Assembly (NCBI RefSeq): GCF_004010195.1
Contig: NC_057719.1
Location: 39,422,252-39,486,251, forward strand
Direction: 5' to 3'
DNA length: 64,000 bases
Source of the DNA: Chiloscyllium plagiosum
Taxonomy: Eukaryota
Positions 5,218 through 60,629 of this stretch are shown here, piece after piece. The notes under the pieces were generated by a model. The model did not search any database. It worked only from the letters and a program-made list of their open reading frames with translations, and was not told where the DNA came from. Made by a program: the position numbers and the translations under genes. Each line of letters begins with the position of its first letter. The first letter of the stretch is position 1.

Positions 5218-5683
5218 TGGGGACATAATGGTAATGTCGATAGACTAATAATCCAGAGGCCTAGGCTAATAATTTGAGAAGGTAAAAACAAAAGCCCTTT
5301 GCCCGAAACGTCGATTTTGCTGAAGCTCCTCGGATGCTGCCTGAACTGCTGTGCTCTTCCAGCACCATTGATCCAGATAATAATTTGAGATACTATTGGA
5401 ATTCAAAATTTACCAGCGTTTATGAAATTGAAAGCTAGTTTGTTTCATAATCATTTTTACTGTCACTGTACAAATCCCTCTAGTTCACTAATGTTCCTTT
5501 TTAGGGAAGAAAATCTGTATCCTTACCTGATCTGGTCTACCTGTGGTTCCAGACCTACAGCAATATGATGGATTCTTGACTGGCCTCAGAGATAGTCCAG
5601 CAAGCCACTGGTTCAAGGGTACTTAAAGGGTAGGCAACAAGTGCAGGCATTTCCAATGCACTCACATACCATGGAAGAATAAA
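5218..5683 (+). mobile_element. Old SINE-like element (host of the 5280 insertion)
   Basis: Similar decayed sequence recurs at about 8105-8320; its 3' end resembles the reverse complement of the old LINE tail at about 24400-24500. Confidence 0.5.
5280..5377 (+). mobile_element. 98-bp Penelope-terminal-repeat-derived insertion with partial HHR and 13-bp TSD
   Basis: TSD taataatttgaga at 5267-5279 and 5378-5390; contains gcccGAAACGTC and the ggatgctgcctga..tccagca family motif. Confidence 0.8.
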
Positions 5684-6299
5684 AACTGTATATAGCCGTG
5701 AGCATGGAAAAATGTTGTACGTTTGGGAGAAATGCCTTATTGGCAATTTCTTTACTGCCAAATTATCACCTGTATCGATGCTATCTTTTGCTGTTTGATA
5801 TTTTCATCTAGACACTTATCATTCTTTGTCATTTCCATTTTGAGCAATGTTATACTTGCCACATCTCTTATGTCAAGCAAGTTGTTAAAAGATTCTCATT
5901 ATATTCCTTTTAAAATCCTCCATTGCTTTGACCCAGATTACTTTTTCCAGTGAACTAATCCAGCATCAGCTTACTCCACATTCCACATTGACAGCTGCTT
6001 CTTGAGCCACAGGAATGTAGGAGCTGTTTCTCCCAGCCTCTCTGTCCTACCACATCCCTTAATACCACTAAGACTGTTCTCAGTACTTGCTCCTTCAGTC
6101 TTTACTTGTTATCTGCCATACTAGACAATGTTTTGAAGATATCTCTCTTCATACTGGGATTCCTATAAAATGAAAATTCTAATGCTATCAGCCCTGCAAC
6201 CAGTTATCTTTACTGCCTTTTCGTACTTGCGCATTAAACTTAGTAATAGAACATGGACATAAATTTCAGAGTTAAGCTTCAAAAAAGTCTCTAATTTCT

Positions 6300-6890
6300 A
6301 GCGAAGATCACAAAATCACTGAATTATGCAGTGCAGAAGGAGGCTGTGTTCATCCCATCACATCTCCAGTAGTTCTCAAAACATTTTTACTTGGTGTCAA
6401 ATTCCTGTTTATTCCCTGTAACCATGCACATTGATTATTTAAATAGAAACAATGCCACTTCCTGGCAGCCCATTCCAAACATGGGCCACTTTGCTGTGTG
6501 ATACTTTTCTCACCTTTTTTTCTGATTTTTGTGAAACATTTTAAAACTGAACCATGGTTCTCGATCCTTTTGAGAAAGATTGTTTCTTCCTATCTACTAT
6601 TAGCTCCTCATGAATTTGTAAAATTTTATCCAATTTCCTTCCACCTTCTGTCAAAGAGAAACAGTTCTAACTTCTCCAATCTGTCCCATTAACTGAAGTA
6701 TGTCATCCCTGGAACCATTCTTGTAAATATCTTTTGCACTCTCTACAATACATTCACCACCTTTCTAAAGAGTGGTGCCCAGAACTGTGCACAAATTCCA
6801 GCTGTGGTCTAACATGCCCTGTATTGTTCAACAGAGTCCCTATTCTTAGATTTGTGTTCCTATTAATGAAGCCTAGAATATTATTTGCTT
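6300..6890 (-). mobile_element. Old CR1 3' fragment
   Basis: Decayed reverse-complement CR1 motifs (gtggtgcccagaactgtgcaca = CAQFWAP). Confidence 0.7.
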
Positions 6891-7166
6891 TCCATTTTTA
6901 ATTTAAATCTGAGAATCCTATAAGTTTTCAATGGAACTTTCAAATGTTGCTTGAAGAGGAGGACATATCTTGACTGGAGGGCGATTTCATTTTGGCCTTA
7001 GTTTGAACTGAAAGGTATTGCTTTCCAAGTACACGTCGATACAATAAATACTTGCATTTTTCATTCCTTTATTTTAAACCTAGATTTCTGACTTCGTTTA
7101 CTTTAACCTTTTTGTCTAAAACTTCTAAAGCTTTTCAACTAATATCCTTGTTTTCCTCCACATCAG

Positions 7167-10146: not shown

Positions 10147-10469
10147 TTAGATTAGATTAGATTAGATTACTTACAGTGTGGAAACAGGCCCTTCGGCCCA
10201 ACAAGTCCACACCGACCCGCCGAAGCGCAACCCACCCATTCCCCTACATTTACCCCTTTACCTAACACTACGGGCAATTTAGCATGACCAATTCACCTGA
10301 CCTGCACATCTTTGGACTGTGGGAGGAAACCGGAGCACCCGGAGGAAACCCACGCAGACACTGGGAGAACGTGCAAACTCCACACAGACAGTCGCCTGAG
10401 TCGGGAATTGAACCCAGGTCTCTGGCGCTGTGAGGCAGCAGTGCTAACCACTGTGCCACCGTGCCGTCC
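10147..10469 (-). mobile_element. Full-length tRNA-derived V-SINE (HE1-type shark SINE)
   Basis: On minus: A box TGGCACAGTGG, B box GGTTCAATTCC, V-domain GTGTGGAGTTTGCACGTTCTCC..GGTTTCCTCCGGGTGCTCCGGTTTCCTCCCAC, CR1-like 3' tail and (TAATC)n end. Confidence 0.92.
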
Positions 10470-10649
10470 ATAAATTTATGCACATTGAATTGATTATTTA
10501 AAATCAGGGTCCCTTTTTTGTTCTTGGATGGCTCTGAATTAATCTAATGAACAATTGACCTACACTGATAAGGAAGGTCTCCAGCTCTGGCTCTGTGTTG
10601 GTTAATTTCTTTTCATTTGGGTTGTATGATTATTGGACTTGGAAAGGAA

Positions 10650-15631: not shown

Positions 15632-15649
15632 AAAGCAAAATGGATAGAG

Positions 15650-16960: not shown

Positions 16961-17069
16961 GCTGCAAAAAAAACAAATTTCTGGAAAAGCTCAGCAGGTC
17001 TGGCAATACCTGTGGAGAGAAGTCAGAGTTACTGTTTCGGATTGAGTGACCCTTTCCTGAGAATGGGTG

Positions 17070-21020: not shown

Positions 21021-21023
21021 TTA

Positions 21024-21220
21024 GGAGAAAGTAAGGACTGCAGATGCTGGAGATCAGAGTTGAAAGTGTGGTGCTGGAAAAGCACAGCCGGTCAGGCAGC
21101 ATCTGAGAAACAGGAGAATGGATGTTTCAGGTCCTGATGAAGGGCTTATGCCCGAAACGTCAATTCCCCTGCTCCTCGGATGCTGCCTGACCTGCTGTGC
21201 TTTTCCAGCACCACAATGTC
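21024..21220 (+). mobile_element. Fold-back Penelope-terminal-repeat-derived element with HHR core
   Basis: Inverted arms (gtggtgctggaaaagcacagc..aggcagcatc / gatgctgcct..gctgtgcttttccagcaccac) around CTGATGA-A-GGGC-TTAT-GCCC-GAAAC-GTC at 21134-21161. Confidence 0.85.
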
Positions 21221-22794
21221 AATGAACTATATTCCTAAACCTGTTTATAATTAGACAGCATTCTGTATGTATTTTTCTTGAATACATTTCATTCTATTGA
21301 CATCGTTGGTTGAAAAAAATCTTTAAATCCTGTATTTAACATAGTACTGTTTGACTGCAATTATTTTGCATGTCGCTGCCAATAAGTACAGAAATACAAA
21401 GATGGTCATTACGAATAGAATATAGAATATCCTTTTATTGTCACATTTTATCCATTGTAGATATACAGTGAAAAGCTTTTACAATATCTGCTTCTTATGA
21501 TGCCATGTTAGGTACAAGTACCTAGGTACAAATTTTAAATGGATTTAACTGTGTGGGGGTATCAGCAGTTGCTATGTGCTTTTTTTATTCCATACCACGA
21601 ATGCTGACAATTATGACAACAAACCTTTGGTTCCTGTGGTCAGTGTTCTGAACAATCAAATTGCTCATATTTGTTTTCAAAAAAATCTTCATCTGATTGA
21701 AAGGTTTGAGTAAGGATTCTAACTCCCACATTAAACCTACCTATAACTTGGTCATTTATGCCTTGTAGTTTTGTTTACACTTTTGCTTGTGCATATAAGC
21801 CCAAGCCCATCATAAACCTGTCAATGCTATTTATACCTTTCCTAGAGTTGTCACTCAGCACAAAACCTGTACCAACTACACTTGGTGCCTCTAGTTCTCT
21901 TAATGCCAAAGTGAGAATTAATCCTGGTTTCTAAGCACAATCTAGTTAAACTTGGAAACTTATGTTTCTCCATGTGTAGTAGAATTTGAGCTTTTTAATC
22001 CAGTGATTCAAAACAGCTCGAAAATTAATTTATTTGAAATATTTTCAAAGTAGTATTTTCAAGTGGGTGGGGTAGAGAGAAGGAGGGAGAGAGAGAGGAA
22101 AGAAGAGGATTGAACAATAGGTGGAGATGAAACCAGAGGAAGGGAGAAACAATTGGACAGACAAAGCAATAGGTAAAGATCAGATTGGGAGAATCATTAG
22201 CTGCAAATGGGGATCATTTGTAGCTGACAATGAGTTGGTTGTGGTAGCAGCCCTTGTGGTGATAAGATCTGGTGTGTGGGGTTTGAAGTAAGGGCATGGG
22301 AGAAGATGCTCAGGCCCTAAAATTATTGAACTGAATACTTTGAGACAACCTTTTAAACAGGCTAAGTAGAGGAACATTGGTACCGCTGCTGGATTTAGGT
22401 AAATGCATTTAATTAAGTGTTGTCCCTTTTGAGATTATTTCATTGACAAGACAATGCAAAAGTTCTGAAGTTAAATTGCAGTCTCTAGTTACATGGCTTA
22501 ATCTTTATTTATGATTCAGCTTTTGAGACAACTACATAGGTTTGAGAAATAGGCTCTGAATTAGGCTTTCAATGGATCAAAATACATTTTGACCTTAGCT
22601 TTCTCAACATCTAACCCATGCCCTCATATCATGCAATTAATTTTTGAGAATATTATTCTAAATTTAATTATTCAAGCACTTTTGCATATTTCTTTGCATC
22701 CGCCAGGATCACGTTTCTTCTTGCAAGGTGAAACCACAGGTTTAATCCTCAGGCACTGGGTCAACCTAGTCAGTGTTTTTGCAGCATTGTGATT

Positions 22795-23267
22795 GTAGGT
22801 TTGCTCACTGAGCTGGAAGGATCGTTTCCAGATTTTCTTTACCCTACCTAGGTAACATCTTCAGTGGGCTTCAGGCGATGCAATGCTGAAAATTCCTGCA
22901 TTCTATTTATATGTTTGGGTTGATGATGTCATTTCCAGTGGTGATGTTATTTCCTGTGGTGAAGTCACTTTCTGTTCCTTTTTTCAGGGGGTGGTAGATG
23001 GGGTCTACCTCGATGTATTTGTTGATAGAGTTCCGGTTGGAGTGCCATGCTTCTAGGAATTCTCGTGCGTGTCTTTGTTTGGCTTGTCCTAGGATGGAAG
23101 TGTTGTCCCAGTCAAAGTGGTGTCCTTCCTTATCTGTATGTAAGAATACTAGTGAGAGACGGTCATGTCTTTTTGTGGCGAGTTGGTGTTCATGTATACT
23201 GGTGGTTAGTTTTCTGCCTGTTTGTCCAGTGTAGTATTTGTTACAGTCCTTGCACGGTATATTGTAA
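22795..23267 (-). mobile_element. Penelope-like element 3' fragment (GIY-YIG endonuclease)
   Basis: Minus ORF IYNIPCKDCNKYYTGQTGRKLTTSIHEHQ..REFLEAWH; terminal repeat related to 29357. Confidence 0.9.
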
Positions 23268-23351
23268 ATGATGCTGCCTGACCGGCTATACTTTTCCAGC
23301 ACCACATTTTTCGACTCTCCTCGCCAGCATCTGCAGTCCTCAATTTCTCCT
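23268..23351 (+). mobile_element. Arm of the short HHR-element family (no core)
   Basis: gatgctgcctgacc..ttccagcaccac..ccagcatctgcagtcctca matches the 21024 and 54946 family. Confidence 0.75.
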
Positions 23352-25094
23352 CAACCACTAGAAAGGAAAGGTTCAACGCTTGAGGCTGCATTTGAATTAC
23401 AGTGTCAAAGATTGGTGTACCAACCAAATTCAGCAACCTTTCCTGCAAATTAAGTTAAATATTTTTGATTTGTTTCTCATCTCTTGGAGAGTTATGAAAT
23501 TTTTCAGCATAGTTCATTTTGCCACTGACAGGGACTAACCCACAGCCACGTGCTGCCGGGCTCTGTTGATACACACGCCCTTGTTCATAAACAGCTCATT
23601 TCCTCATTTGATGCTGAAAAATCATCTTTTAAGAGTAGGCTCATCAGCCATGCAGCTTTTAAGGTATTTTCATGTTCCCATTGGCCTGCTTTTTTTAGAT
23701 TGCATAAGGAGGATAAATCTCCGCAATGTATGTCATGAAATAAATAGAGTCATCGAGATGTACAGCATGGAAACAGACCCTTCGGTCCAACCTGTAACGA
23801 AAGCTAACAGATCTTTAAGATGTATGCAAGTTGTCTTACAAAATGACTCCCAGAAGCCACATGACTACCCATGTGCATTCAACTAGTATTAGAACCGTAG
23901 TCTGTTTTGCAAAAAGAAATGCAAAGGTGTATTTTAAATTCATTAGATATTTTCCAGGGTAAACAATTTGGTGGCTTCTCTATTTGAATTCAAATTTCGT
24001 CCCTCTGCTGTGTTCCACCCAGAATGTTACTCAGGTTTCTGGGTTAACAGTGACAATGGTTTCCCTTCCTGCTCCCTTGCTCTTTCCCCAAATATGCCAC
24101 TGGATCTATCCTCGTCCCCTCCAATTTTTCATTGCCTTGCTGTCCTCTGTGACCTCATCGGAAAGAGCAACATCAGTTTTCAGTGTACGTTGCTGACACC
24201 TGTTTTAGACATTGCAACTCACTCCACTGTATAAGTTGCTGCTACCATTCTTTATAAAGTGTAGAAAATTGCAGGATCTGTATGGTCCAACACGGCAGAA
24301 GCAAGCCACTTCTGGTTTAACTGGAAATGTCTCTTGCAGTTAACATAATATAATTTATTGCAACAATTTCCAGGTTACGTCATTATGAGGATCTTCCCTT
24401 TTACTCGTCATGGAAAGTGGGCATTGCTGGCTGGGCCTGTATTTATTACCTATACCTAGTTGTTCTTGAGAAGGTGGTGGTGGGCTGCCTTCTTGAATCA
24501 CTGCAGTCCAGCTGCTGTAGATTGACCCTTGGGGAGCAAATTCCAGTATTTTGACCTAGCAACACTGAAGGATCAATGATATATATTTCCAAGTATGGAT
24601 GGTAAGGGACTTGGAGCTGGTGATGTATGTGCTGCCCTTGTCCTTCTAGATGGATGTGGTCATGGGTTTGGAAGACTTGATTTGTGGCAATGCATCGTGT
24701 AGACGATACACACTGCTGCTACTCAGCCTCAATAAATCAGAGAATTAATTACAATTTCAACATTTAAAAGGCATCCAGATGGGTACTTGAGTAGGCAGGC
24801 TTGAGAGGATTAGGGGGCAATTGCTGGCAAATGGGATGAGGTTAATTTAGGATATCTGGTTTGCATGGATGAGTTGGGCTGAAGGGTCTGTTTCTGTGTT
24901 TTACAACTCTGACTGTGGAGGTGTTACCGACTCTTCCAATTTCACTTTTTAAAATAAAGTTATAATAAGCCATCGAGGCTAATAGTTGACCATTTAAAAA
25001 GTTAATTGCCTCCATGAAAAGACAGTGGATGGGTCTGTGTTCTAAACCTAAATTAACTGAATACATATGATAGACACAAACACAATGCTGTAGA

Positions 25095-25335
25095 AATAAA
25101 CACAATGCTGTAAAAACTCTGGTCTGACAGCATCTGTGGAGAGGAAAAAACAGTTACCATTTCAAGTCCAGTACGAATCTTCAAAATTTGTTCTGAAATA
25201 ATTATCGTTCTGTTCTGAAGAGGTGTTGTACTGGACTGGAAACATTTAACTCTTGTTTCTCCTTCCACAGTTGCTGCCAGAATGCTGAATTTCTCCAGCA
25301 TTCATATTTATTTCAGATTTTCAGCATCAGTATTT
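25095..25335. mobile_element. Old fold-back element with decayed HHR-like core
   Basis: Imperfect inverted arms (cagcatctgtggaga / ttccacagttgctg; ttcaagtccagtac / gtactggactggaa) with ctgaaga..gaaacatt. Confidence 0.55.
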
Positions 25336-31150: not shown

Positions 31151-31336
31151 TTAGATTTTAGATTAGATTAGATTAGATTAGATTAGATTACTTTCAGTGT
31201 GGAAACAGGCCCTTCGGCCCAACAAGTCCACACCGCCCCGCCGAAGCGCAACCCACCCATTCCCCTACATTTACCCCTTTACCTAACACTACGGGCAATT
31301 TAGCATGGCCAATTCACCTGACCTGCACATCTTTGG
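31151..31336 (-). mobile_element. 5'-truncated HE1-type V-SINE
   Basis: Near-identical to 10147-10315; (gatta)n tail. Confidence 0.9.
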
Positions 31337-33565: not shown

Positions 33566-33998
33566 TGACCTCTAAGTGAAGCGAAGCTGTTGTCTCCTGC
33601 TTTTTATTTATATCTTTCTCCTGGATGGGGTTCCTGGAGTTTGTGGTGATGTCATTTCCTGTTCATTTTCTGAGGCGTTGATAGATGGCATCTAGATCCA
33701 TGTGTTTGTTTACGGCGTTGTGGTTGGAGTGCCAGACCTCTAGGAATTCTCTGGCATGTCTTTGGATAGATGTCCCAGGATAGATGTGTTATCCCAGTCG
33801 AAATGGTGGGTTTTTTTCATCCATGTGTAGGGCTACAAGGGAGAGTGGGTCGTGTCTTTTTGTGGCTAGCTGGTGTTCCTGTATCCTGGTGGCTAACTTT
33901 CTTCCTGTTTGTCCTACATAGTGTTTGTGGCAGTCCTTGCATGGAATTTTGTAGATGACATTGGTTTTGTCCATGGGTTGTACTGGGTCTTTTAAGTT

Positions 33999-34316
33999 TT
34001 AGATTAGATTATATTACATTACAGTGTGGAAACAGGCCCTTCAGCCCAACAAGTCCACACCGACCCGCTGAAGCGTGACCCACCCATACCCCTACATTTA
34101 CCCCTTACCTAACACTACGGGCAATTTAGCATGGCCAATTCACCTGACCAGCACATCTTTGGACTGTGGGAGGAAACCGGAGCACCCGGAGGAAACCCAC
34201 GCAGACACGGGGAGAACGTGCAAACTCCACACAGTCAGTCGCCTGAGGCGGGAATTTAACCCGGGTCTCTGGCGCTGTGAGGCAGCAGTGCTAACCACTG
34301 TGCCACCGTGCCGCCC
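33999..34316 (-). mobile_element. Full-length HE1-type V-SINE inserted in Penelope
   Basis: Near-identical to 10147-10469; splits the Penelope sequence tttaagttt|gttagtttttgtttgagag seen intact near 29860. Confidence 0.92.
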
Positions 34317-44345: not shown

Positions 44346-44526
44346 AGCACTGTTATTTCAAAATTAAACTCCATCATATTCTCCTTGGCCCAATTGGTCA
44401 CAGGCCTCCAGTCTGAAAAGCAACCCTCAACCAATTGAGTTGTTGGAATGTTGTTGCAACTTTGGGTTCTTCTGTCATCTCTGAGCCCTATATGTTTTTG
44501 TTCTTGGAAGAGATATACTTCTACAT

Positions 44527-44831
44527 TTAGGGTGTAGGTTTGCTCGCTGAGCTGTAGGTTTGATATCCAGACGTTTCATTACCTGGCTAGGTAACATCAT
44601 CAATGGCGACCTCCAAGTGAAGCGAAGCTGTTTTCTCCTGCTTTCTATTTATATCTTTCTCAGTTCAGGAGAAAGATATAAATAGAAAGCAGGAGACAAC
44701 AGCTTCGCTTCACTTGGAAGTCGCCACTGATGATACCTAGCCAGGTAATGAAACGTCTGGATATCAAACTTACAGCTCAGCTAGCAAACCTACACCCTAA
44801 ACCTCAACCTGAGCTACAAACATTGCAAAAA
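44527..44831. mobile_element. Palindromic non-autonomous Penelope terminal-repeat element with 12-bp TSD
   Basis: Arms 44527-44661 and 44669-44800 are reverse complements around a 7-nt loop; TSD atacttctacat at 44515-44526 and 44832-44843; one HHR motif per arm. Confidence 0.92.
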
Positions 44832-45700: not shown

Positions 45701-46566
45701 CTGACCATGACATGAATGCTGATAGTTGTAGATATTTTCTAATTAGCCTGCTCAGATATATAATGGCACATGTCTGAGGCAGGTGGAACTTGAGCCTAGA
45801 CTTTCTGACTCAGCTATAGGGACACTATCAGTGTGCCGTAAGAGTCTTTTGCCGATAATTGTAAGCACGTTTACGGAAGTATCAATGCATTGTAAATAAC
45901 TGAACGTGATGATCTACAAATGTTCACCAATCCTTCAAGCTTGTTCTTTCATTTGGTTAGATTGTAGTTGCTTCGTACCTTACCTCAATCTGCACATGTT
46001 TTAATATCCTTGATAACAAAAATCACTTAACTTCAATTCTGACAATTTTAGTTCACTTAACTGCAATGATTTTGGTGAGGTGAGTTCTAGGTTTTCATCA
46101 CCTGTTATGTGAAGACGTGCTTTCTGACATCACCTGTGAACAGCCTAGCTCCAATTTTAAGGTTACACATGTTCATTTGGGACCAGACAAAGTGATCCTC
46201 TCTCCTTTCCTTATTCAGTAATTCAGTTTTCTTAAACATCTCAATTAAGATCACATTCCACTCTTCAATATTCAAGGGGCAACATGCTCTTGTAACCAGT
46301 CCTCAGAACATAACCCTTTCAACTCTGCCATTATTCTGGTGAATCTACATTGCAAGCCCTCCAGTAACAATACATTTTCCCTGAATCGGGGTACTAAAGG
46401 AAGTTAAGTTTGTCAGAAATTGAGAAAGTTGAGTCAGAGTTGAAAAGTATGGCACATCCAAGGAGCAGGAGAGTTGATGTTTCAGGCCCTTTATCAGCAA
46501 TGTGGAGGGGGAAAGGAGGCTGAGAGATAAATGGGGTGGGGGTGGAATAGGGTTAGGGATAGTAGA

Positions 46567-46666
46567 TTCCTGATTCCTGAAGAAGGGCCTGTGCCCGAAA
46601 CGTCGAATCTCCTGTTCCCTGGATGCTGCCTGACCTGCTGTGCTGTTCCAGCAATAAAGTTTCAAC
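46567..46666 (+). mobile_element. 100-bp HHR-bearing insertion with 14-bp TSD
   Basis: TSD ttagggatagtaga at 46553-46566 and 46667-46680. Confidence 0.88.
46572..46609 (+). ncRNA. Minimal type I hammerhead ribozyme, intact core
   Basis: GATTC-CTGAAGA-A-GGGC-CTGT-GCCC-GAAAC-GTC-GAATC: 5-bp stem I, 4-bp stem II, loopless palindromic stem III; predicted cut after 46604. Confidence 0.85.
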
Positions 46667-47622
46667 TTAGGGATAGTAGAAAGCTCTACCCTCCTAACTC
46701 ACCTTATCACTATTTATCTCCTCCACACCCGCATCAACTAATTATTTAAAAGGCCAACTTTACCATGCACTTGTTTTATTTCCAAGTGTTGTATTGTGAA
46801 TACCAGTGACTGAAGTTAGCTATGCATGTAATCTCCACTTCATAAGAAGGCTGATTTAAATGGAAGAATGATGCATTTAGGTCACTCTCTCAAACTTTAA
46901 GCTGCTGTTTAAAAATAGCTATAGTCGCTTCGAACACGGCAGTATGATGGATCCATGTAGAGAGAATTATTGCATTAATCTTTGTATTTAAAGTTCATTC
47001 AAGTAAAACTTGATGGGTAGGTTAGTCCATAGTATTATCCCAATATTTTAGTTATTGGCTTCAAACCAATTGGTAGTGATCTAGAGACATACCATTTCAC
47101 TACTTAGCTTGAACGTTGAATTACTAGATGATGAAATAAAAACATTAGAATCTTCTATAATTTCTATAAAGGAAATGGTAGTGCAGAATGCCAGATTTAT
47201 GACTACTTGTAAGAAGCTAGTTGTGTAGAATATTGAAGAAACATAAGGTTTTTGAGCAGGTGCGTGGTATTGCATTTTAAGTTTAAATATAATTCAATAA
47301 AAGCAAAGTTAATTGAAATTGAGAAAGTTGCACAGTTCGCTTGTGTGCCCTGGATGTCCCAAAGTCTTTCAATGTAAAGTTTTGAAGTATAGACAGAAAT
47401 CTAGAGAATGCAGCAAACCATTTGCATATGACAAGGTATCACAAATTGTATTGAGACAAGATTGCTTGGAAAGGTTCTGAATCTTTGAAGTAATAGTTTG
47501 ATTTGAGAAAAGATATGAATTTGGAATTCTAGAAGTTCAGCACAGAAAATGTTTTGATTCAGTTACATATTATTTTTATAATCCTGACTCTTTCTGTATT
47601 GTACTTGGTTGAATTTATTATT

Positions 47623-47940
47623 GGATGGCATGGTAGCTCAGTGGTTAGCACTGCTGCCTCATGGAAGCAGGAACCAGGGTTCAGTTTTATCCTCAGGTGC
47701 CTGCATGGGTTTCCACCGGGTATTCTGTTTTCCTCCCGCAGTTCAAAGATGTGCAAGTTAGGTGGATTGGCCATGTTAAATTACCCATAGTGTTCAGGGA
47801 CATGTAGTTTAGGTGCATTCGCCATGGGAACTGCAGGGTTACAGGGATTGGGTAGGGGGCTGGATCTGAATGGGATGCTTTTTGAAGGGTTGGTGTGGAC
47901 TCTTTGGGATGAATGACCTGTTTCCATACTGTAGGGATTC
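47623..47940 (+). mobile_element. Old diverged V-SINE
   Basis: ggtagctcagtggttagcactgctgcctca head, partial V-domain, tail gacctgtttccatactgta. Confidence 0.8.
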
Positions 47941-49974
47941 TTTAAAAAAATAGTAGTTGCAGTTACTACGTACAAAAGTATTTCCTAGTTTTCTAGTTGA
48001 TATAATCTTGACTTGATATCTATTCAGATGAAACAGCTGTTGTCCCTTCTCTAATGGTTGTAAGTATATACGCACAGATTGAACTTAGTAGTTTGAAAAC
48101 AAATGTGCAGCTGTAGTGACAAAGTGTATCCATCATTGTCCATTACTTGGTAGAGGTGGCAACATAATTTTAGAGAGGAAACTTTTTAGTGTTGGGTTCT
48201 GTTAGAGATCTTTGATAATTTATACAAGCAATAATAGTAACAATAATAGTAGCAGTAACTGTGGAAGGACAAAAATAAAACAAGTATTCAATAGTGAGCT
48301 ATTTGTCTCACTAAGTATAATGGCATCATCTTTAATTTGTCTGTATAAACTCCTCATTAATGTTTACAACCTCAGTATTATTCAGATATTGTAACGTTTA
48401 TTGTGGATTGGCAAGAAATGTCTGTGGGTTAATTTATTAAGGCCAGTCTTTTACTATGGCTATAAATCAAAATGATTCCTATTTCAAATTTTAGCCTTTG
48501 CTGGGTTAGTTGACTTTGAAAGTAGGCATGCTGTGTTTGGCATTCTGGGGCAAAAAGCTGTGTCCCTCCCATTGTCAACCATTAATCACAGGTGAAGTTT
48601 GGGCATGAAGTGAGCAAAGTTGCTTCCTATTGGATACTATGTCAGTACTGTGCCTAGGTATTCGCACAAAGGCTGACTTGGAAAACATCTCTGAGAAGTC
48701 AATGTTTCAGGATGTGTTGGGGAAGATAAATTACTAAAGAATAATTATAAGGCTATTAAGTCATCATATACAACAGCAACTTGCAACTGATATAGTAACT
48801 TAAATGTAGAAAAAAAACATCCAAGTTGTAATCCAAGTACAGTACCTTCTTCAACCTTAACTACTTAAATAAAACTGTCAGGCTTAGAGAATTAATGGCA
48901 GGGTTGTCTCATGCAGAGAAACAGTGTATCTCTAAACAAACTTTCTTTCTCATAGCTGGCTCAATACAGAGACGGCTAACTAGTATCTGCGCACTAGCTA
49001 CATTTTAATCTTTGGAGGTAACCAATAGTCTATGTAGCAATAGTACCACGTTTTTCATCCTCAAAACAAGTGGATTGTTTTTGCTGTGCCACCTGAGTAG
49101 GCAATTGCAATGGCCAATTTATTGGTGACACAGTCTCACAAGCTGCAAATAAATTTATGACTAAATAAACTTGCTAATAGCATTCGGTCGATTGAAGAAT
49201 ATTATCCTAAATATTATCCAGGAAGACTTCATACTCTTGGAATACCAATAGTTAGTTTTACAGCCAAGTAAGAGTGTGCTTAATTCAGTATTTTTAATAT
49301 ATTCATTCAAAAGACTACATTTTCAACAATAAATTACTCTTCGATGCTGCATTGAATTGCCAGTTTAAATTGCGAGGCTCAAACCCACAATTTACTGGCT
49401 GTTGGAGGAGAGAGTTCTTGCAAATGAGCCAAGCCAAAACAAGGAGTCACATGTTTTGTAACTTTCTCAATTGAGAATTACAGTGGAACAAATAAGCATT
49501 CTCTGCATTTGTCAAGGAGTTTTCTCCCTTTTCATGTAACTTTGTCAATTTGGCACTGAGTGTTTGAATTGAGAATGCTTCATCACTGAATTACATTTCC
49601 TTTGTGCAGGATTTTACCTTACCATTGTGCATTTGTCTGTTAATTAGAACTGAAGGTATTCCATGACCACCACTTTTACGCACATCCTCCAATTATAACT
49701 ATTCATAAGATCCTACACTAAAAACATAAATAGCTCAAAACAGAAGCCAATTAGATGCAGAATTAAACTTGAAACAGAATTGCTCTTAAAAAGATAATGG
49801 CCTACAATTTCATGGCAATTATTATTATTCTTCCCTGCTGAAATGATGCTGTATGTTGCATGTATTTGTATGTCGGTTAAAACCACCATGGTAATTGCAA
49901 GGAATGCCAATGTGTGGTTATGATCCTAATGAAAGAACTATAAATCAAAATAATCACATTTATGGAGTTTACAA

Positions 49975-51170
49975 ATATCTGTAATACAGAGGAGGAAGTG
50001 CCGGATATCTTGAAACACACAAAAGTGAATAAATCCCCAGGACCTGCTCAGGTGTACCCTAGAACTCTGTGGGAAGCTAGGGAAGTGATTGCTGGGCCTT
50101 GCAGAGATATTTGTATCATCAATAGTCACAGGTGAGGTGCTGGAAGACTGGAGATTGGCTAACGTGGTGCCACTGTTTAAGAAAGGTGGTAAGGATAAGC
50201 CAGGGAACTATAGACCAGTGAGCCTGACATCAGTGGTGGGCAAGTTGTTGGAGGGAATCCTGAAGGACACGATGTATATTTATTTGGCATGGCAAGGACT
50301 GATTAGGGATAGAGAACATGGCTTTGTGCATGGGAAATCATGTCTCACAAACTTGATTGAGCTTTTTGAAGAAGAAACGAAGAGGATTGATAAGGGCAGA
50401 GTGGCAGACATGATCTATATGCACTTCAGTAAGGCATTTGACAATGTTGCCCATGGGAGACTGGTAAGCGAGGTTAAATCTCATGGAATACAGGGAGAAC
50501 TAGTCATTTGGATACAGAACTGGCTCAAAGGTAGAAGACAGAGGGTGGTGGTGGGGGGTTGCTTTTCAGACTGGAGGCCTGTGACCAATGGGGTGCCACA
50601 AGGATCGGTGCTGGGTCCACTACTTTTCATCATTTATATAAATGATTTGGAGAAAGTGAGGACTGCAGATGCTGGAGATCAGAGCTTAAAAATGCATTGC
50701 TGGAAAAGCGCAACAGGTCAGGCAGCATCAAAGGAACAGGAGAATTGACGTCAGGGAGAGGTTGAGTAGACTAGGGCTGTTTTCCCTGGAGCATTGGAGG
50801 CTGAGGGTGACCATATAGAGGTTTACAAAATTATGAGGGGCATGGATAGGATAAATAGACAAAGTCTTTTCCCTGGGGTGGGGGAGTCCAGAACTAGAGG
50901 GCATAGGTTTAGGGTGAGAGGGGAAAGATATAAAAGAGACCTAAGGGGCAACTTTTTCACACATATGGTGGTATGTGTATGGGATGAGCTGCCAGAGGAA
51001 GTGGTGGAGGCTAGTACAATTGCAATATTTTAAAGGCATTTGGTGGGTATATGAATAGGAAGGGTTTGGAGGGATATGGGCTGGGTGCTGGCAGGTGGGG
51101 CTAGATTGGGTTGAGATATCTGGTCGACATGGATGGGTTGGACTGAAGGGTCTGTGTCCGTGCTGTACTC
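49975..51170 (+). mobile_element. CR1 RT fragment plus 3' end, separated by an HHR-family arm (about 50649-50752)
   Basis: ORF 50089-50748 [26 protein letters not shown] runs into gagaaagtgaggactgcagatgctgg; the CR1 3' end resumes at about 50753. Confidence 0.9.
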
Positions 51171-51689
51171 TCCAGGGAAAACAGCCTGTGATGCTCCAGG
51201 GAAAACAGCCCCAGCCCATTCAGCCTCTCCCTATGGCTCAAATCCTCCAACTCTGGCAACACCCTTGTGAATTTTTTCTGAACCCTTTCAAGTTTCACAA
51301 CATCTTTCCGATAGGTAGGAGACTAGAATTGCACGCAATATTCCAACAGTGGACTAACCAATGTCCTGTACAGCCGCAACATGACCTCCCAACTCCTGTA
51401 CTCAGTACTCTGACCAATAAAGGAAAGCATACCAAACGCCTTTTTCACTATCCTATCTACCTGTGACTCCACTTTCAAGGAGCTATGAACCTGCACTCCA
51501 AGGTCTCTTTGTATAGGAACACTCCCTCGGACCTTACCATTAAGTGTATAAGTCCTGTTAAGATTTGCTTTCCCAAAATGCAGCACCTCGCATTTATCTG
51601 AATTAAACTCCATCTGCCACTTCTCAGCCCATTGGCCCATCTGGTCCAGATCCTGTTGTAATCTGAGGTAACCCTCTTCGCTGTCCACT
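51170..51689 (-). mobile_element. CR1 fragment (post-RT region)
   Basis: Minus ORF VDSEEGYLRLQQDLDQMGQWAEKWQMEFN..LEYCVQF. Confidence 0.92.
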
Positions 51690-51749
51690 CTCTTACTTAG
51701 AAAATATTGCTGACTATTTTTAATTAATTCTTGCCTCTTCAGAATTTTT

Positions 51750-52830: not shown

Positions 52831-54945
52831 CCACAGTAGAATGGTTTTTGAATGCAACTGCTTACCCCATCCTTTTTGGTCATGGGGGTCATGAATTTTT
52901 CGCAATGGTGAAAAAATTTGTTATTCTCTGCATTGACTAGTGCCATGGTGGAAGGCGTAGGTTCACCCATTCAGAAAAATTGAGCTTTCCTTCGCACTTC
53001 TGACTTGTGACAAAATATTTTGTAAACTTGTAAACTGTTAAATTTGCTATTACGTTTCTCGATCTGTTCCAAAGGCAGTACTGCCAGTAATATTTTAGGG
53101 AATTACTTTGGGTTCAGATGTATCTGGATTTGAACCTTTGGTGACAAAAAGTCGTCTTTCTTTTCTCTGCTTTGACAAGATATTTCAATAATCTTTTGCT
53201 ACTTATTTTTAATAATACCATTTTGCTTAAAATACTTCTACTAAATTCCATTAGTGCATTTAAGTGATCTGAAATTATAATTTTCAAAGGGTACTTTTCT
53301 CACTCCTATTTTACTAAAATGCAAAAGCTACATTCCTGTAAAACATACTGGATTAACAAGATGTAAAATAAGTTCTTTTTCAAAAAAAATTTATCAAATT
53401 AGAGAAGTGATCTTAATATTAGCTGTGTTTTGGCACTAGTCACCAGATGATGTGCAGAACTGATGTGACAGCACCATGCAGCTGTTTTCTTGAAATATTT
53501 GAAGTAATACTCTGAAGTACTTAATAACATCTAGGTCCCATTTAATGATTTAGGCAGGTGTCAGAGGCTAGCACAGTCCTTTGAACTAGTATTTATATTC
53601 TAAGTGGTATTTATATTCTACTGTTAACTGTGTGATTAAAGGTTGGAATGAGATGACCTTTCAGTGTAACTGAGAGTGCACTCAATGCTATTGTAATTAT
53701 AAAAAGATTGAATCTTTTGGTTTTCAATATGTATTGAACTATTTATTTATAGTATACTGTGTTGACCCATGAGCATACTGTATAGGAAAAAAAGCTTACA
53801 TTTTATGTTGGATTGTGGTCCTATTCAGAAGATTGTTTCCCTTGATTTTTTTTTGGTATCATAAAGTAAGTGACCAAGTTGCCTGACCAGTAAACAAGAC
53901 GTTAATTAGAGGAGAAATTTTGGGTACTGGTGAAAGTGTTGTTGAAGATATTGCAAGCCCTTTAAGAGCAGAAGGACTGTATTAATAGTGAGGTGAACTC
54001 CAGGGTAGCCAAGCCAAGGAGAGTCCAATTTCTTCGATGAAAAGTCACTTTGAAGCCATCATGCCCATTACAAGGCTGCCATGTGCAGCAATAATGCACC
54101 ACAGGAGGACTAAATTCTAAATTAGCGAATAGTCAGTTTTGACCAGCAGTGCCAGAACTCTGTAACAGACACTGCCAGTACTGCCAGATGGAGTCTCAGG
54201 AAGATCAAAGATGTTAAAGTCCAGGGCTTTAGTACGGGGTTGGACTCTCGAACGTAGGGAAAGGGAGTTGAGGGAGGTGAAATTCCATCAGTAAGGCAGT
54301 GCAGAAGGAGGCGGGGAAAGGGGTGGAATCTTGCGGACTCAGGTTTTCATGATGCCCCTCATTGTATACAGGACATTCCCTCCTTGAATGAGGTAACCCC
54401 TGCACATTTTACCTTAATTCATTTAGATCTGTAAGACAGTGGATCCAGTCCTGGTCAACTGTCCACACCAGCCATATGGTGTAGGCAGCATATTCAGGCC
54501 AAGAGGCATGTTAACAAGGCAAATTGGCCTTCTAATTATTTATTTAAATATGGGTGGGAACCAAAATTGGCTGCCTACCTACCACCTTATATAAAAGAGA
54601 GTGGGTTTGGGTTGGTTAGTTAGTTGTCTTCCAACTTATTTTATCTGCTTCCTAACAACACGCCTGGCAAGGTGCGACATGTAAAATCCAGCCCACACCT
54701 GAGGTACTAACAGCATCTATTTTGAACTGAGTGTCTACACACAATGGAAGAAGTTTGAAGGGGCAGCCTGACAATGTAAACAGATGACACAATAAATTTA
54801 GATTTTTAAATAAAGCTTTGTAAATGCGTTGATCAAGTGGTCAAATTGCAAATCTTTGAATATTTGATTTATTTTGCTACAAAAGTCAAATCCATATAGA
54901 AGGAAATTTGAATGAAATAGTTTTGTTTAGTTATGAATAACTGCA

Positions 54946-55105
54946 TGTCGAGCAGCATCCAAGGAACAGGAGAATCGACGTTTCGGGCAAAAGCCCTTCT
55001 TCAGGAATGATTCTCCTCTGCCTTGAATGCTGCCTGACCTGCTGAGCTTTTCCAGCAACACATTTTCAGCTCTGATCTCCAGCATCTGCAGTCCTTACTT
55101 TCTCC
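54946..55105. mobile_element. 160-bp fold-back HHR-bearing insertion with 15-bp TSD
   Basis: TSD ttatgaataactgca at 54931-54945 and 55106-55120; minus-strand HHR ATTC-CTGAAGA-A-GGGC-TTTT-GCCC-GAAAC-GTC-GATT at 54973-55008. Confidence 0.88.
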
Positions 55106-56811
55106 TTATGAATAACTGCAGTCATTATAGTTTTAATATTCTTAGCATAGCCAGCTCTCAGTGTGTGGTGACTGGTATTCACATTCTTTGATATTTGTAT
55201 ATTCATATTGCAGTTAGTGGATGTAGATTCTGAAATGGAAAATATTCTTTTGATGCCCAGATTAATTTTAAACCTGTTTAGTGCAGGCGGGGGTAGTTAC
55301 TGCGGAAGTCTAGCTTAACCACGTGGAGGCATTTACAGCCACAAAGGCCTTTTCATTTGTCTCAAGATGCACTTTTCCTATTTGTCTGGCTGAATTTATG
55401 TTTAACTTCTCAATATTTAGAACTTATTTATAGACCAATATACTCCTAATTCTGAATATTTGAAGGTTACTTGAATGTCTTATAGTATAGGTTTTAACAC
55501 TTAATAACAATTGACAGATATTGATGTAAAATAGTGCATTTACATAATGTGCAATAATGTCTAAAATATAAGTTTAGGCTTTAATACATAATTTACATTT
55601 TCTACCTCAGTAGATTTATACAAAGTATGTACTTTATTTTGCCTCTGAAAGTATTTTTCCTTTATATTCTTCACTCATTAGTTATAGCCTTCTAAAACGT
55701 GTTTAAAATGTTCAGAAATTTTGTGTGTCAGTGAGGCAACAAATTGGTAATGCAAGTCACAGAACAAAGCTGTGGTAACAGCAGTATTCATAAACCACAG
55801 CCTCCACCCTTTCTGTTAATGTTGATATTTCCTCTACATTTGCAGTTGCAATTTTTTTTTTCAAATTCTGAAGAGCTTGGATACTGTTAGCTAATTTTTA
55901 AATCAATTTCATTTGTGGAAGAATACCATTTTTAAAGCGTGTTGAACATTCAAATTTACTATTGTAAAATTTAGAAGTTGAAATTAACCATTGCATGCAA
56001 AATTTGTTGCGAACTGCATGAGCCCAAAATTGTTTTAAGTGATTGAGCGCTTTGAGTTCCAACCAGAAAGTTGTGAATTTTCAGTTAAGCTGTAGATCTT
56101 TTCAGTTTGATTAATTTTCAGTGAGTTTATATATCAGCATTATTATATTGGCTTTGTTATGGTTTTGGTTTCATATCAGTGCTTGTTACATTTACTTTGA
56201 AGAAACTAGACCCCTTAAACCACAAGCAGAATTGTAGACCATTGAAAACACTGCAGCAGGAGGCAAAAGGCACCGATTGTTTTTCATCTTCTGTTAATCA
56301 GATCCAAATTTCACCACTCTTAGCTGATCATTAAATTGTATTATGAAAACAAACCATTACATGTTGAAAATATGAAATAAGAACAAAAATGGCTCGAAGA
56401 ACTCAGAAGTCAGGCAGCATCTGTGGAGAGAAAGAGTTAACATTTTAAATTTTTTTTATATATCAGAACTGAAGAAAGGTAGAAGTGCACAAGATTTGAA
56501 GCAGATATATTTGGTGGTGGGGACAGGAAGAACAAAGGAGAAGGTCTGTGAAAGGGTGGAGGCCTGGCGAGATTAAATAACAAAAGATTTCATGATGCAC
56601 CAGCCAAAGAGCATGGTAATGGATATAGTAAGGGAACAAAGATTGTGTCTGAATGCAAAATGAAGGGATAAAGAAAGAAATGAGACAAAGACCAATCCAG
56701 CAAGACAAAAAAACACACTGTAGAGGCAGAGGTTTGATCTGAATTTGTTGAACTTAGTGTTGAGTACAGAAAGCAAGTTGAAAAATAAATTGCTGTTCCT
56801 TGAGCTTGTGT

Positions 56812-59050
56812 TAGACAATAGACAATAGGTGCAGGAGTAGGCCATTCTGCCCTTCGAACCTGCACCACCATTCAATATGATCATGGCTGATCATCCATAA
56901 TCAGTATCCTGTTCCTGCCTTATCTCCATAACCCTTGATTCCACTATCCTTGAGAGCTCTATCCAACTCTTTCTTAAACGAATCCAGAGACTGGGCCTCC
57001 ACTGCCCTCTGGGGCAGAGCATTCTACACAGCCACTACTCTCTGGGTGAAGAAGTTTCTCCTCATCTCTGTCCTACATGGTCTACCCCGTATTTTTAAGC
57101 TGTGTCCTCTGGTTCGGCACTCACACATCAGCGGGAACATGTTTCCTGCCTCCATCAGACCCCCATCTTATGTCTCAACCAGACCCCCTCTCAGTCTTCT
57201 AAACTCAAGGGTATACAAGCCTAGTTGCTCCAGTCTTTCAGGGTAAGGTAGTCCCGCCATTCCAGGAATTGACCTCATGAACCTTCGATAGCCAGAATGT
57301 CTTTCCTCAAATTTGGAGACCAGAACTGCACACAATACTCCAGGTGTGGTCTCACCAGGGCCCTGTACAGCTGCAGAAGAACCTCTTTGTTTCTATACTC
57401 AATCCCTCTTGTTATGAAGGCCAGCGTGCTATTAGCCGCCTTCACTACTTGCTGTACCTGCATGCTTACCTTCATTGACTGGTGTACAAGAACACCCAGA
57501 TCTCTCTGTACTGCCCCTTTACCTAACTTGATTCCATTTAGGTAGTAATCTGCCTTCCTGTTCTTACCACCAAAGTAGATAACCATACATTTATCCACAT
57601 TAAACTGCATCTGCCCACTCACCTAACCTATCCAGGTCACCCTGTAATCTCCTAACATCCTCCTCACATTTCACCCTGTCACCCAGCTTAGTATCATCAG
57701 CAAATTTGCTAATGTTATTACTAATACCATCTTCTATATCATTAATATATATTGTTAAAAAGCTGCGGTCCCAGCACTGATCCCTGCAGTACCCCACTGG
57801 TCACTGCCTGCCATTCCGAAATGGAGCTGTTTATCACTACTCTTTGTTTCAATCCAAGTTAGTAATTTGCCCGCAATACCATGCGCCATAATTTTGCCCA
57901 CTAACCTCCTATGTGGGACTTTATCAAAAGCTTTCTGAAAGTCCAGGTACACTACATCTATTGGATCCCCCTTGTCCATCTTCAGAGTTACATCCTCAAA
58001 ACATTCCAGAAGATTAGTCAAGCATGATTTCCCCTTCATAAATCCATGCTGACTCTGACCTATCCTGTTAATACTATCCAGGTGTGTCGTAATTTCATCC
58101 TTTATAATAGACTCCAGCATCTTTCCCACCACTGAGGTCAGACTAACTGGTCTATAATTTCCTGCTTTCTCTCTCCCACCTTTCTTAAAAAGTGGTACAA
58201 CATTAGCCACCCTCCAATCTGCAGGAACTGATCCCGAATCTATCGAACTCTGGAAAATAATCACCAACACATCCACGATTTCTCGAGCTACCTCCTTCAG
58301 CACCCTGGGATGAAGACCATCATGCCCCGGGTACTTATCAACCTTCAGTCCTAACAGTCTCTCCAACACCAATTCCTGACAAATATAAATTCCCTTAAGT
58401 TCAGGTCCTCCAGCCACTGTTACCTCAGGGAGATTGCTTGCGTCTNNNNNNNNNNNNNNNNNNNNNNNNNNNNNNNNNNNNNNNNNNNNNNNNNNNNNNN
58501 NNNNNNNNNNNNNNNNNNNNNTGCTATGTTATATTTTTTCTCTTTTAACTTTATATGTTTCTTAACTTCCCTCGTCAGCCACGGCCACTCATGCCTCCTC
58601 CTAGGATCTTTCTTCTTTCTTCCTTTTTGGAATGAACTGATCCTGCATCTTCTGCATTATACACAGAAATATCTGCCATTGTTCCTCCACTGTCATCCCT
58701 GCTAAGGTATTGCACCATTGAACTTTGGCCATCTCCTCCCTCATAGCTCCATAGTTCCCTTTATTCAACAGAAATATTGTCACTTCCGATTGTACCCTCT
58801 CCCTCTCAAATTGCAGATTGAAGCTTATTGTATTATGGTCACTACTTCCCAATGGCTCCTTCACTTCGAGGTCCCTGATCAATTCTGGTTCGTTGCACAA
58901 TACCAGATCCAGAATTGCCTTCTCTTTGGTAGGCTCCAGCACCAGCTGTTCTAAGAATCCATCTCTGAAGCACTCCACAAAGTCTCTTTCTTGAGGTCCA
59001 ATACCATCCTGATTCTCCCAGTCTACCTGCATGTTGAAATCCCCCATGAA
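56812..59050 (-). mobile_element. CR1 LINE ORF2 (relatively young), spanning an assembly gap
   Basis: Minus ORFs [42 protein letters not shown] and LEYCVQFWSP; tail (ctattgt)n. Confidence 0.95.
58446..58521. other. Assembly gap (N run)
   Basis: Run of n characters. Confidence 1.
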
Positions 59051-59510
59051 CCTCACTGGAACTTACTTAGCCCATGATAGGTCAGCACGAGAGCAAGGTG
59101 GAAACTTTAAAGTGAAAAGCAACCGTGTTTATATTTGCAGACTGGACAGATAGCTATGTTCCAAGATGTGACCTCCCTGTGCAGAGAATGTCATGAGCAG
59201 TGAATGTAGCACACTAAAATGAAAGAAATTGCAGCAAATTATTTTTTCACTTGGAAGAATTGGTTTGGACAGTGAGAAAGGTGTCTTACGTTGCAGTATC
59301 TAGTTAGAGATGGTTGAGGATAAAATGTGACGTGTCTTAGTGAGAAGAGCACTTGTCTTACACAATAAGATGTAATTTTATTATTTATGATAGGTACATG
59401 AACTCTGTAGTTGTGCTCCTCAGCTATCTTCCCAGGTATTACCCTTTATAAGCCTTGCAATATATTGGATATAGTCCACTGGAAAATCTCTGGTGCTGAA
59501 GTGATCCTGA

Positions 59511-59688
59511 GTAGAGGAAAAAAATCAGAAGTTGGAATCCAAGGTATTCAGGCAGAAGGCTGGAAGAATGCAGCAAGCCAGGCAGCATCAGGAGGTGGCA
59601 AAGTCCACGTTTCGGGTGTGACCAGTCCTGAAGAAAGGTTATATCTGAGACATTTTCTTCTCCACCTCCTGATGCTGCCTGGCCTGTG
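59511..59688. mobile_element. Older fold-back HHR-family insertion with probable 10-bp TSD
   Basis: gtgatcctga at 59501-59510 and 59689-59698; arms ccaggcagcatcaggaggtgg / ccacctcctgatgctgcctgg; decayed cctgaaga core and acgtttcggg. Confidence 0.7.
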
Positions 59689-60629
59689 GTGATCCTGAAT
59701 TGCAGTCTATTGAAGCAAAATCTCCCAAATAGAATTATAAATGCAGTAAGCAGTCTTGTTAGTTCATCTAATGGTAATTGTCGAAAACCGCTGTTTGCCT
59801 AATGTTTGGTAAGATCTCAACTTTTGGACAACTTGGCTAAACTTTCACTGTACACATAGGATGGATTCCCCTCATTCCTGTCTTGCTGAGTTATTAGATT
59901 AACTATCCTGATTAATCCCTTTGGTTTGGGAACAGCAAGCGTACCCGAATGCCACCTCATTAGTTTGGTTACTAGGCAATAGCATCCATTTTGGTCATTT
60001 CCTCGAGTCTTTCTGAACTTGATTTTTTTTAAGTTAGGGAATCTTCCTGGGGTATGGTGACATACTAGCACAGCATCCTTTTTATCAAATGCTGTATTCA
60101 GTACTGAATTTGTTTAATCCAGTGAATAATTTAGTGGAATCCTTTTTAAAGGAAAATTTACTTGTATTCCAATTCTTCACCCTTTTGAATTCAGGTTAAG
60201 GGAAAAGCATGTCTTTGTCAAGTGATGTTTCCTGTGTATGAATTATGGATATGTTTTCTACTATCTGATTTTTTTGTAATTTTACTTACAGCGTACCTAT
60301 TAATGTAGAAAGTTATGCATCCTACACACACAGTTTCATGCTTGCAGCCTATAACTGCTGTTTCTTCAGCCATGGTATTTGAAGTGATAAGATAATGACA
60401 CTTGCCCTGTATCAAGCTTAAAATTAATGAAATGTCCATTGACATAAATAAGTTCAGAAAAATACTCAGTTGAATCACAAACTTCCCCTAGGACTGCTTT
60501 GGATATCTTTTTGGTGGTAGTTCTATCGCATTAATGTTTGCGTAAGTAACTATTTGGCTTCATTTTGCTCTGAAACTGTGTTTCACTTCTGCACATCTTC
60601 TGGAAAAAACCTTTTAGTTTGCATTTTTT

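Follow-up and report, generated by a model that had tools for sequence, protein, structure and literature searches.

Hammerhead-bearing stubs in Chiloscyllium plagiosum as terminal-repeat copies of Neptune-type Penelope-like elements

A 64,000-nt stretch of the Chiloscyllium plagiosum genome (NC_057719.1, 39,422,252-39,486,251 of the forward strand; hereafter the window, to which all insert coordinates refer) contains several tiny insertions related to a hammerhead ribozyme. What are these insertions, and which element made them? A sequence-only reading had taken them for one family of independent retro-insertions, consisting of little more than the ribozyme repeat and either retrozyme-like or truncated from a Penelope partner. 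On sequence grounds, the inserts are copies, flanked by target site duplications (TSDs), of the hammerhead-bearing terminal repeat (pLTR, with an optional tail of about 35 nt) of Neptune-type Penelope-like elements (PLEs). Their independent insertion is supported, and the truncated Penelope was the closer of the two alternatives, the unit being the pLTR of a coding element, but the truncation is not of the ordinary random kind. The copies are indeed related by their hammerhead repeat, but they form at least four subfamilies (s1-s4) rather than a single one.

The TSDs of 13, 14, 15 and 10 bp that had been reported were all found exact and in place. One young case is the CTGT-loop (s1) stub at 46567-46666 on the plus strand, with a 14-bp TSD (46553-46566 and 46667-46680). 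It starts with a 6-nt reiterated leader, so that unit position +1 is at 46573, has its core at 46577-46604 with the ribozyme cut predicted after 46604, and stops at the short, tail-less 3' end. Seven further copies were 100% identical to it among 40 scored candidates. It was inserted at the edge of an older degenerate copy with 3' UTR (46451-46558, minus strand, 66% identity). In one of the four sequencing runs examined (X16), a contig joins 46552 to 46667 with 114 bases skipped and 14 letters shared, which gives an empty site with one target copy. The TTTT-loop (s3) stub at 5280-5377 (plus strand; 13-bp TSD, 5267-5279 and 5378-5390) consists of about 18 nt of inverted pieces from the tail end and stem II, followed by the unit from about +18 to +94 without the CTGA core, and it is 88% identical to the 5' pLTR of another locus, L215.

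Three insertions in the window have two arms placed head to head. The one at 54946 (15-bp TSD, 54931-54945 and 55106-55120) has a short minus-strand arm (54946-55008) beginning from +1 at 55008, with its core at 55004-54977, and a long plus-strand arm with tail (55009-55105, +33 to +129). The long arm starts at the predicted cut position, a single case with no enrichment genome-wide. The insertion at 59511-59688 belongs to the older fourth subfamily (s4), with stem II GGGT/ACCC and stem I AGTC/GACT; its long arm (59634-59511, minus strand) and short arm (59624-59688, plus strand) both have decayed cores, and its TSD (59501-59510 and 59689-59698) is 10 bp when exact or 12 bp with one mismatch. 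The third, of the TTAT subfamily (s2), has a long minus-strand arm with tail (21024-21131, +22 to +129) and a short plus-strand arm (21132-21221, +3 to +92), whose core at 21134-21161 has the first pair of stem I broken. Two coreless copies complete the set, an s2-like fragment at 23270-23350 (plus strand, +50 to +129; earlier placed at 23268), which abuts a Poseidon-type relic, and an s2 arm at 50649-50751 (minus strand, +28 to +129), located where a CR1/L2-type LINE relic is interrupted. These related copies are real, although the TSD search at 21024, 23270 and 50649 found none. The full core CTGA(T/A)GA-A-GGGC-N4-GCCC-GAAAC-GTC was confirmed at 21134 (plus, loop TTAT), 46577 (plus, CTGT) and 55004 (minus, TTTT), and is not intact in the copies at 5280, 23270, 50649 and 59511.

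Could such cores and duplications arise by chance? The copy-number check that had been proposed found 87,227 exact cores genome-wide and 0 for the reversed control; 70 sampled stretches held 32 cores against 0 in a base-shuffled control, and the control of the TSD finder gave 1/95. The hammerhead cores and TSDs are not chance. By extrapolation there are about 5.6x10^5 loci. The stems covary among subfamilies (GGGC/GCCC versus GGGT/ACCC; ATTC/GAAT versus AGTC/GACT), while stem I of s2 and s3 has a U-U mismatch. The predicted fold has the features of minimal PLE hammerheads, namely the conserved core, stems I and II and a palindromic loop 3 region. The Rfam check gave a different result, with no hammerhead family matched by the copies at E up to 1; hits to MIR7504, Phe_leader and MIR841 were hairpin matches on inverted repeats and were rejected. 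By fold energy the copies could not be told from shuffles (z from -0.3 to -1.8, one at +0.6; 12/200 shuffles, not significant). Like the hammerheads of metazoan PLE pLTRs reported by Cervera and De la Pena (2014; PMC4209133), these have a type I core that lacks helix III, the palindrome ACGT, an unpaired base before stem II, a stem I of 4-5 bp and opposite-strand pairs; unlike them, stem II has just 4 bp, and the ribozymes here are putative, known from sequence. There as here, dispersed single motifs "probably related to truncated PLEs" predominate, and about 4,000 motifs in coelacanth and 9,000 in Xenopus compare with the 87,227 exact cores of this genome.

Which element do the stubs come from? 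The search for copies joined to RT/GIY-YIG coding sequence found such loci. Of the 15 s3 loci fetched, 9 have the unit ahead of the ORF start and a second time 3.0-4.0 kb further on, the arrangement of a pLTR with partial tandem that encloses RT/GIY-YIG coding sequence on either side. Locus L073 holds an RT fragment (RVT_1, E 2.5e-06, slightly short of the Pfam threshold), the ORF C-terminus, the 3' UTR and an s2 unit all together; s1 and s4 units continue into homologous ORF starts, with the putative start at about +167. ORF-linked copies with a matching unit were found for every subfamily examined. A CX2-5CxxC linker precedes GIY-YIG in L071, L082 and L215; of 43 database relatives whose EN motif can be recognised, 39 have it too. 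One relative (P0082) has the Pfam GIY-YIG domain, and the nearest proteins are shark and ray RTs (73-86%). This linker is described as a mark of Neptune/Nematis in the part of PMC8557442 used here; the Neptune assignment is made through this feature, common to Nematis as well. Long copies are decayed or partly N, and since parts of those fetched read N, no single one can be read as an intact ORF; L071, once considered a full element, is in fact two unrelated insertions flanking another retroelement. The Neptune-clade EN+ PLEs presented there share the unit at both ends, a size of 3-4 kb, the order RT, linker, GIY-YIG, partial tandems, head-to-head copies, an optional tail (30-40 bp there) and long TSDs. 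As had been suggested, the driver is not the Poseidon-type family coded in the window, whose RT is only 28% identical to that of the stubs' partner over 47 aa, whose stems differ from those of the stubs and which is without the linker that the partner carries. In the Pfam search, four other ORFs and two short EN fragments of the window were unmatched.

How then were the stubs made so short? An unbiased sample of 70 stretches of 10 kb yielded 135 arms in 104 loci. TSDs are mostly of 14-16 bp. One long and one short arm were combined in 26 of 27 head-to-head loci, the Penelope signature of an optional tail at one end and an adjacent inverted truncated copy. The 3' ends fall at two sites, about +85-98 and about +127-130. 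Ends were taken by BLAST on copies 70-100% identical and are blurred by several bases; with this resolution, 5' ends occur at 3.9 per 100 nt at -8 to +12 (53/131 arms) against 0.2-0.9 in eight other intervals, with a somewhat raised 0.89 at +13 to +27, and 0.43 around the cut site (+28 to +40). The mis-placed row L228 of alignment A1 was ignored. Within two-arm loci the peak reaches 7.0 per 100 nt, and it is there beyond what divergence from the reference could produce, because the neighbour is the other arm. Among young s1 arms with base-exact ends, 10/31 end at +1/+2 and 1/31 at +33; five ends of this set at -68 reflect a deleted reference, L048, which overlaps L047, was dropped, and s4 end positions were left unused owing to a poor reference. 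The randomly spread ends expected of plain truncation were not seen, and there is no excess at the cut site, so ribozyme cleavage does not set the ends or unit boundaries. All 30 top matches had suggested a single fixed 5' end with a reiterated leader; this was an effect of query selection, and the unbiased sample has a sharp peak instead of one end.

We favour, with moderate confidence, an origin of the stubs from reverse transcription of the element's own mRNA by a Neptune-type RT, initiated at a site inside the leading pLTR and ended by run-off at the RNA 5' end. The end pile-up makes +1 in the upstream pLTR a likely candidate for the transcription start. We take this site to be pyrimidine initiator-like in all four subfamilies, a motif of low complexity inside a pyrimidine-rich stretch. 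Transcription would begin at +1, GIY-YIG would cut the target with a stagger, and the RT would prime at either internal site. With one or with both nicked strands used, the products would be single arms or one-tailed head-to-head pairs. Since a unit also lies at the 5' end of the mRNA, priming there would yield a product of 95-135 nt. Reiterated leaders and partial tandems would then arise at the template end, where the RT may repeat a few bases or switch to another RNA position. On this view most stubs would leave no further copies, and the ribozyme would be carried along as a passenger, with no part for its cleavage in fixing the ends. Penelope is reported, in the part of PMC2377424 drawn on, to have an internal promoter from which its transcript starts within the upstream pLTR. 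For the Anolis Poseidon element PAc (Frangieh et al. 2024, PMC11167929), the sections available describe two internal RT initiation sites that account for the tail, with uncleaved RNA as the main substrate; this in vitro mechanism is that of a Poseidon, not of a Neptune. Like PAc, the stubs have their 3' ends at two positions spaced by about 35 nt, both lying downstream of the hammerhead and independent of its cut site. They differ in clade, in the ORF start (about +167, downstream of both ends, versus at stem II in PAc) and in the 5'-end pile-up, which those sections do not describe.

Could the stubs instead be ordinary, severely 5'-truncated copies of the 3' pLTR, whose ends reflect pausing of the RT or a hot spot of repair at the upstream edge of the ribozyme and involve no template end? 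Strong 5' truncation and adjacent inverted copies are usual in PLEs (PMC8557442, in part), and the raised rate at +13 to +27 agrees with it. Exact s1 27-mers from +3 number 12,255 genome-wide and 4,845 of them read through to -6; with some 40% passing +1, ordinary truncation of copies made from the 3' pLTR has a share as well. As a full account we consider it unlikely, for the roughly tenfold peak is sharp to the base at +1/+2, both stems should, from the fold, be already unwound once the RT reaches +1, and the reiterated leaders and joins at +1 resemble template-end events. Of 18 joins between an ORF-start fragment and a downstream unit, nine lie at -8 to +7 (9/16 without L259, the reference itself, and the mis-anchored L275; 12 of the 30 loci are without a downstream unit). 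Two results speak against the run-off origin. TSDs were found for only 11/69 single arms in a wide search, so that many of these arms do not represent clean units of insertion. Raw RNA (polyA single-cell reads of one informative run) contained the unit on both strands, with 94% of reads running into unrelated flanks and with no start pile or back-joint.

Are the solo stubs themselves mobile? They would keep the start site, the promoter and the RT initiation sites, and might be re-mobilised in trans as a self-propagating SINE-like unit of about 130 nt. Stubs far exceed ORF starts (12,255 s1 cores versus 35 exact matches to an ORF 33-mer), the reiterated leader is common to all 14 top s1 matches, though the query itself selected for these, the genome does contain deleted units mobilised in trans, and the promoter of Penelope is internal and its 3' pLTR able to drive transcription (PMC2377424, in part). 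Such re-mobilisation nevertheless seems distinctly improbable to us: every examined subfamily has ORF-linked copies with a matching unit, in many inserts (466 exact matches) a few bases of ORF-side sequence follow the tail, and the minimal Anolis RNA requires ORF sequence 3' of the initiation sites (PMC11167929, same sections), which solo stubs do not have. It is quite unlikely, too, that the hammerhead-headed module is a complete mobile unit with its own start and two initiation sites; if so, it would be a Neptune RT-driven SINE equivalent of several hundred thousand copies, independent of Pol III and ribozyme cleavage.

The retrozyme label did not hold for the window copies. Such a family would make unit-length circular RNAs from tandem hammerhead repeats, and the window copies would be monomers descended from it. 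Outside the window there are indeed units of 224 and about 320 nt, arranged head to tail and with a core in each (40 and 82 exact junction matches), one identical junction is common to 23 of 30 loci, and animal retrozymes have been proposed as pLTR-derived (bioRxiv 10.64898/2026.07.22.740005, in part). The window copies, however, are single or head-to-head and never tandem, ends ignore the cut site, the junctions amount to about 1% of s1 cores, and the cores are of the minimal PLE type with a mismatched stem I in s2/s3. We thus regard this origin as very improbable. The stubs share with animal non-LTR retrozymes, as the available parts of Cervera and de la Pena 2020 (PMC7229834) and of the Li et al. 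2026 preprint describe them, the non-coding nature, type I hammerhead, long TSDs and PLE derivation; they differ in arrangement and in ribozymes that are minimal, not canonical. The 224/320-nt units, as a minor non-autonomous lineage, fit the preprint's working definition of a retrozyme.

In the open literature searched, we found no paper on this shark family or on a hammerhead 5'-end pile-up; the 2026 preprint, whose survey includes one chondrichthyan genome, may list these units in its supplements. Neptune-type terminal repeats as a kind are already known. The difference from other Neptune-clade EN+ PLEs is that most ribozyme-reaching arms stop at +1, so that stubs of 95-135 nt dominate the family, and that the copy number is very high. 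This scale, with 87,227 intact cores and recent polymorphic insertions, provides a large natural record of Penelope-type integration: near-identical insertions by the thousand, each bounded by a TSD, point at base resolution to two sites of RT initiation and to one candidate RNA start. Should run-off at the RNA 5' end be the true origin, it would extend internal initiation, seen in vitro for Poseidon, to the Neptune clade in vivo, it would account for most PLE hammerheads being lone motifs, and it would show how head-to-tail retrozyme-like units may originate by template jumps.

The four inserts that the sequence-only reading took to be flanked by target site duplications (TSDs), at 5280-5377, 46567-46666, 54946-55105 and 59511-59688, all have exact duplications, of 13, 14, 15 and 10 bp. 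The full minimal hammerhead core assigned to three copies was located at 21134, 46577 and 55004 (the last on the minus strand). For the copies at 21024, 23270 and 50649 the proposed kinship stood, while a search for TSDs found none. The 46567 copy has seven 100%-identical counterparts among 40 scored of 325 candidates, and its empty site, a single 14-bp target, lies on one contig of public sequencing run X16, one of four runs compared; thus the insertion is recent and its TSD is read correctly. By sequence, the window copies divide into four subfamilies: CTGT-loop (46567), TTAT-type (21024, 23270, 50649 and 54946), one whose tail is TTTT-type (5280), and an older subfamily, represented by 59511, in which the stems are changed. 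The stems covary between subfamilies. In the computed fold of the 46567 core, stem I has 5 bp and stem II 4 bp, and a U-U mismatch occurs in stem I of the two commonest subfamilies. Comparable minimal motifs are described as poor cleavers that need dimerisation or the help of a protein (PMC4209133; PMC11167929).

What element do these inserts come from? We number the repeat unit from the A four bases ahead of the CTGA core (+1, window 46573), with the predicted cut at +32/+33. Upstream of the unit are the C-terminus of an ORF and a pyrimidine-rich 3' UTR; downstream are a tail of ~35 nt and an ORF start at about +167. ORF-linked copies exist for each of the four window subfamilies. One locus (L073) combines a reverse transcriptase (RT) fragment (matching RVT_1 at E 2.5e-06, which falls short of the Pfam cut-off), the ORF C-terminus and a TTAT-loop unit, and another (L215) is a classic partial tandem. 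The TTTT-loop subfamily has a unit before the ORF start and again 3.0-4.0 kb on in 9 of 15 loci fetched. No single long copy gave an intact ORF, because the middles of long copies are partly N. The nearest relatives of the RT are named shark and ray proteins, and the coding element has a CX2-5CxxC linker upstream of its endonuclease, a mark of Neptune/Nematis (PMC8557442). The inserts are the terminal repeat (pLTR) of a coding Penelope-like element with a Neptune/Nematis-type linker.

The window also holds decayed Poseidon-type Penelope relics (22794-23271, 29359-30930 and 33486-34737; minus-strand hammerhead cores at 22864, 29432 and 33562). Their RT matches at 28% over 47 aa and their GIY-YIG domain has no such linker, which agrees with the earlier suggestion of another driver; the relics are a lineage distinct from the stubs' partner. 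At 44526-44830 lies a head-to-head Poseidon-type terminal repeat insertion (core at 44727, longer stem II, 12-14 bp TSD), a stub of the same kind from this other lineage; spurious Rfam matches to MIR7504 and Phe_leader arise from it. Divergent hammerhead-like stubs at 25084-25303 (core-like motif at 25215, long stem II, inverted arrangement) and 16978-17060 (weak 28-nt match at 16978), where searches found no TSD, are probably older Penelope-like subfamilies. A CR1/L2-type LINE relic (49973-51690) is broken at the 50649 stub, its missing segment inverted at 51193-51689. An unrelated dispersed family of ~320 bp (10147-10471, 31168-31336, 33999-34318, 47622-47941) is probably a SINE. Elsewhere, a decayed Gypsy-like protease/RT fragment lies between two unrelated stubs (L071, G000 C5:78720500-78729000).

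In the 3.56 Gb genome there are 87,227 exact copies of the 28-nt core, while its reversed control never occurs. An unbiased sample was drawn from large contigs: seventy stretches of 10 kb, placed at round coordinates and amounting to 700,000 bases, 39,769 of them N. It contained 135 arms (unit copies) in 104 loci, about 158 loci/Mb, or by extrapolation roughly 5.6x10^5 loci in the genome. TSDs of at least 10 bases flanked 22 of the 27 head-to-head loci, which have two opposed arms. For single arms the figures were 9/75 in a narrow search (control 1/95) and 11/69 in a wide one (control 0/69). The length was 14-16 bp in 21 of 31 TSDs. That the stubs propagate themselves is, in our judgement, improbable.

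Where do the ends fall? In the unbiased sample 3' ends are bimodal, at about +85-98 and +127-130, and 26 of 27 head-to-head loci pair one long with one short arm. This is the tail signature of Penelope elements; Frangieh et al. explained it by RT initiating internally at two sites (PMC11167929). The 5' ends in the sample are not random: for 53 of 131 arms the end lies within -8..+12, a rate of 3.9 per 100 nt at risk (7.0 in two-arm loci). Rates elsewhere are 0.2-0.9, and the figure near the predicted cut is 0.43. Genome-wide, 12,255 CTGT-subfamily 27-mers start from +3, of which 4,845 extend to -6. Base-exact ends of young arms peak at +1/+2 (10/31), with one at +33, and often carry a few reiterated bases. 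Fragments of the ORF start join the following unit at -8..+7 in 9 of 18 cases. No excess at the predicted ribozyme cut site was seen in the sample or the young arms. A pause or repair hot spot could also produce such a peak, but we regard this as unlikely.

We favour the reading that stubs are run-off products of internally initiated reverse transcription from the leading pLTR of the mRNA, +1 probably being the RNA 5' end. The ribozyme's ACGT palindrome (+28..+31, window 46600-46603) partially matches a downstream promoter element. If +1 is the start site, such an element would sit at about +28..+31. In D. virilis Penelope the element is RGACGTGY, and the promoter that drives transcription is internal to the upstream pLTR (PMC2377424); the mRNA would therefore bear the unit at both ends. 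RT initiating internally could start in the leading copy and yield stubs exactly as observed, slipping or jumping where the template ends. The palindrome is possibly a dual-use sequence. Public run X19 showed no pile of RNA starts at the unit. Its 1,329 matching reads fall on both strands, and 94% of them run into unrelated flanks; run X20 had no matching reads.

Are the stubs retrozymes? Non-LTR retrozymes are by definition tandem hammerhead repeats (PMC7229834; preprint 10.64898/2026.07.22.740005), whereas none of the window copies is in tandem. The retrozyme-like reading, one of the two first proposed, does not hold for these copies, and descent of the window stubs from retrozymes is very doubtful. 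Elsewhere, the CTGT subfamily includes units of 224 and ~320 nt that stand head to tail and have internal deletions (G000 C1:26522037-26522500, L047; C2:96929334-96929900, L072; L095-L120). Their junctions recur identically at 40 and 82 places respectively, often as one 224+320 cassette, and amount to about 1% of CTGT-subfamily cores. These units are candidate true retrozymes; they form a real, minor non-autonomous lineage, mobilised in trans.

Published work already describes minimal pLTR hammerheads, truncated copies standing alone, inverted pairs, tails and short Penelopes that are non-autonomous (PMC4209133; PMC8557442; 10.1101/596502). A search of largely open-access literature found no description of this shark family or of the +1 peak. 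The element family is thus of known type, and the +1 peak is its one useful, testable peculiarity.
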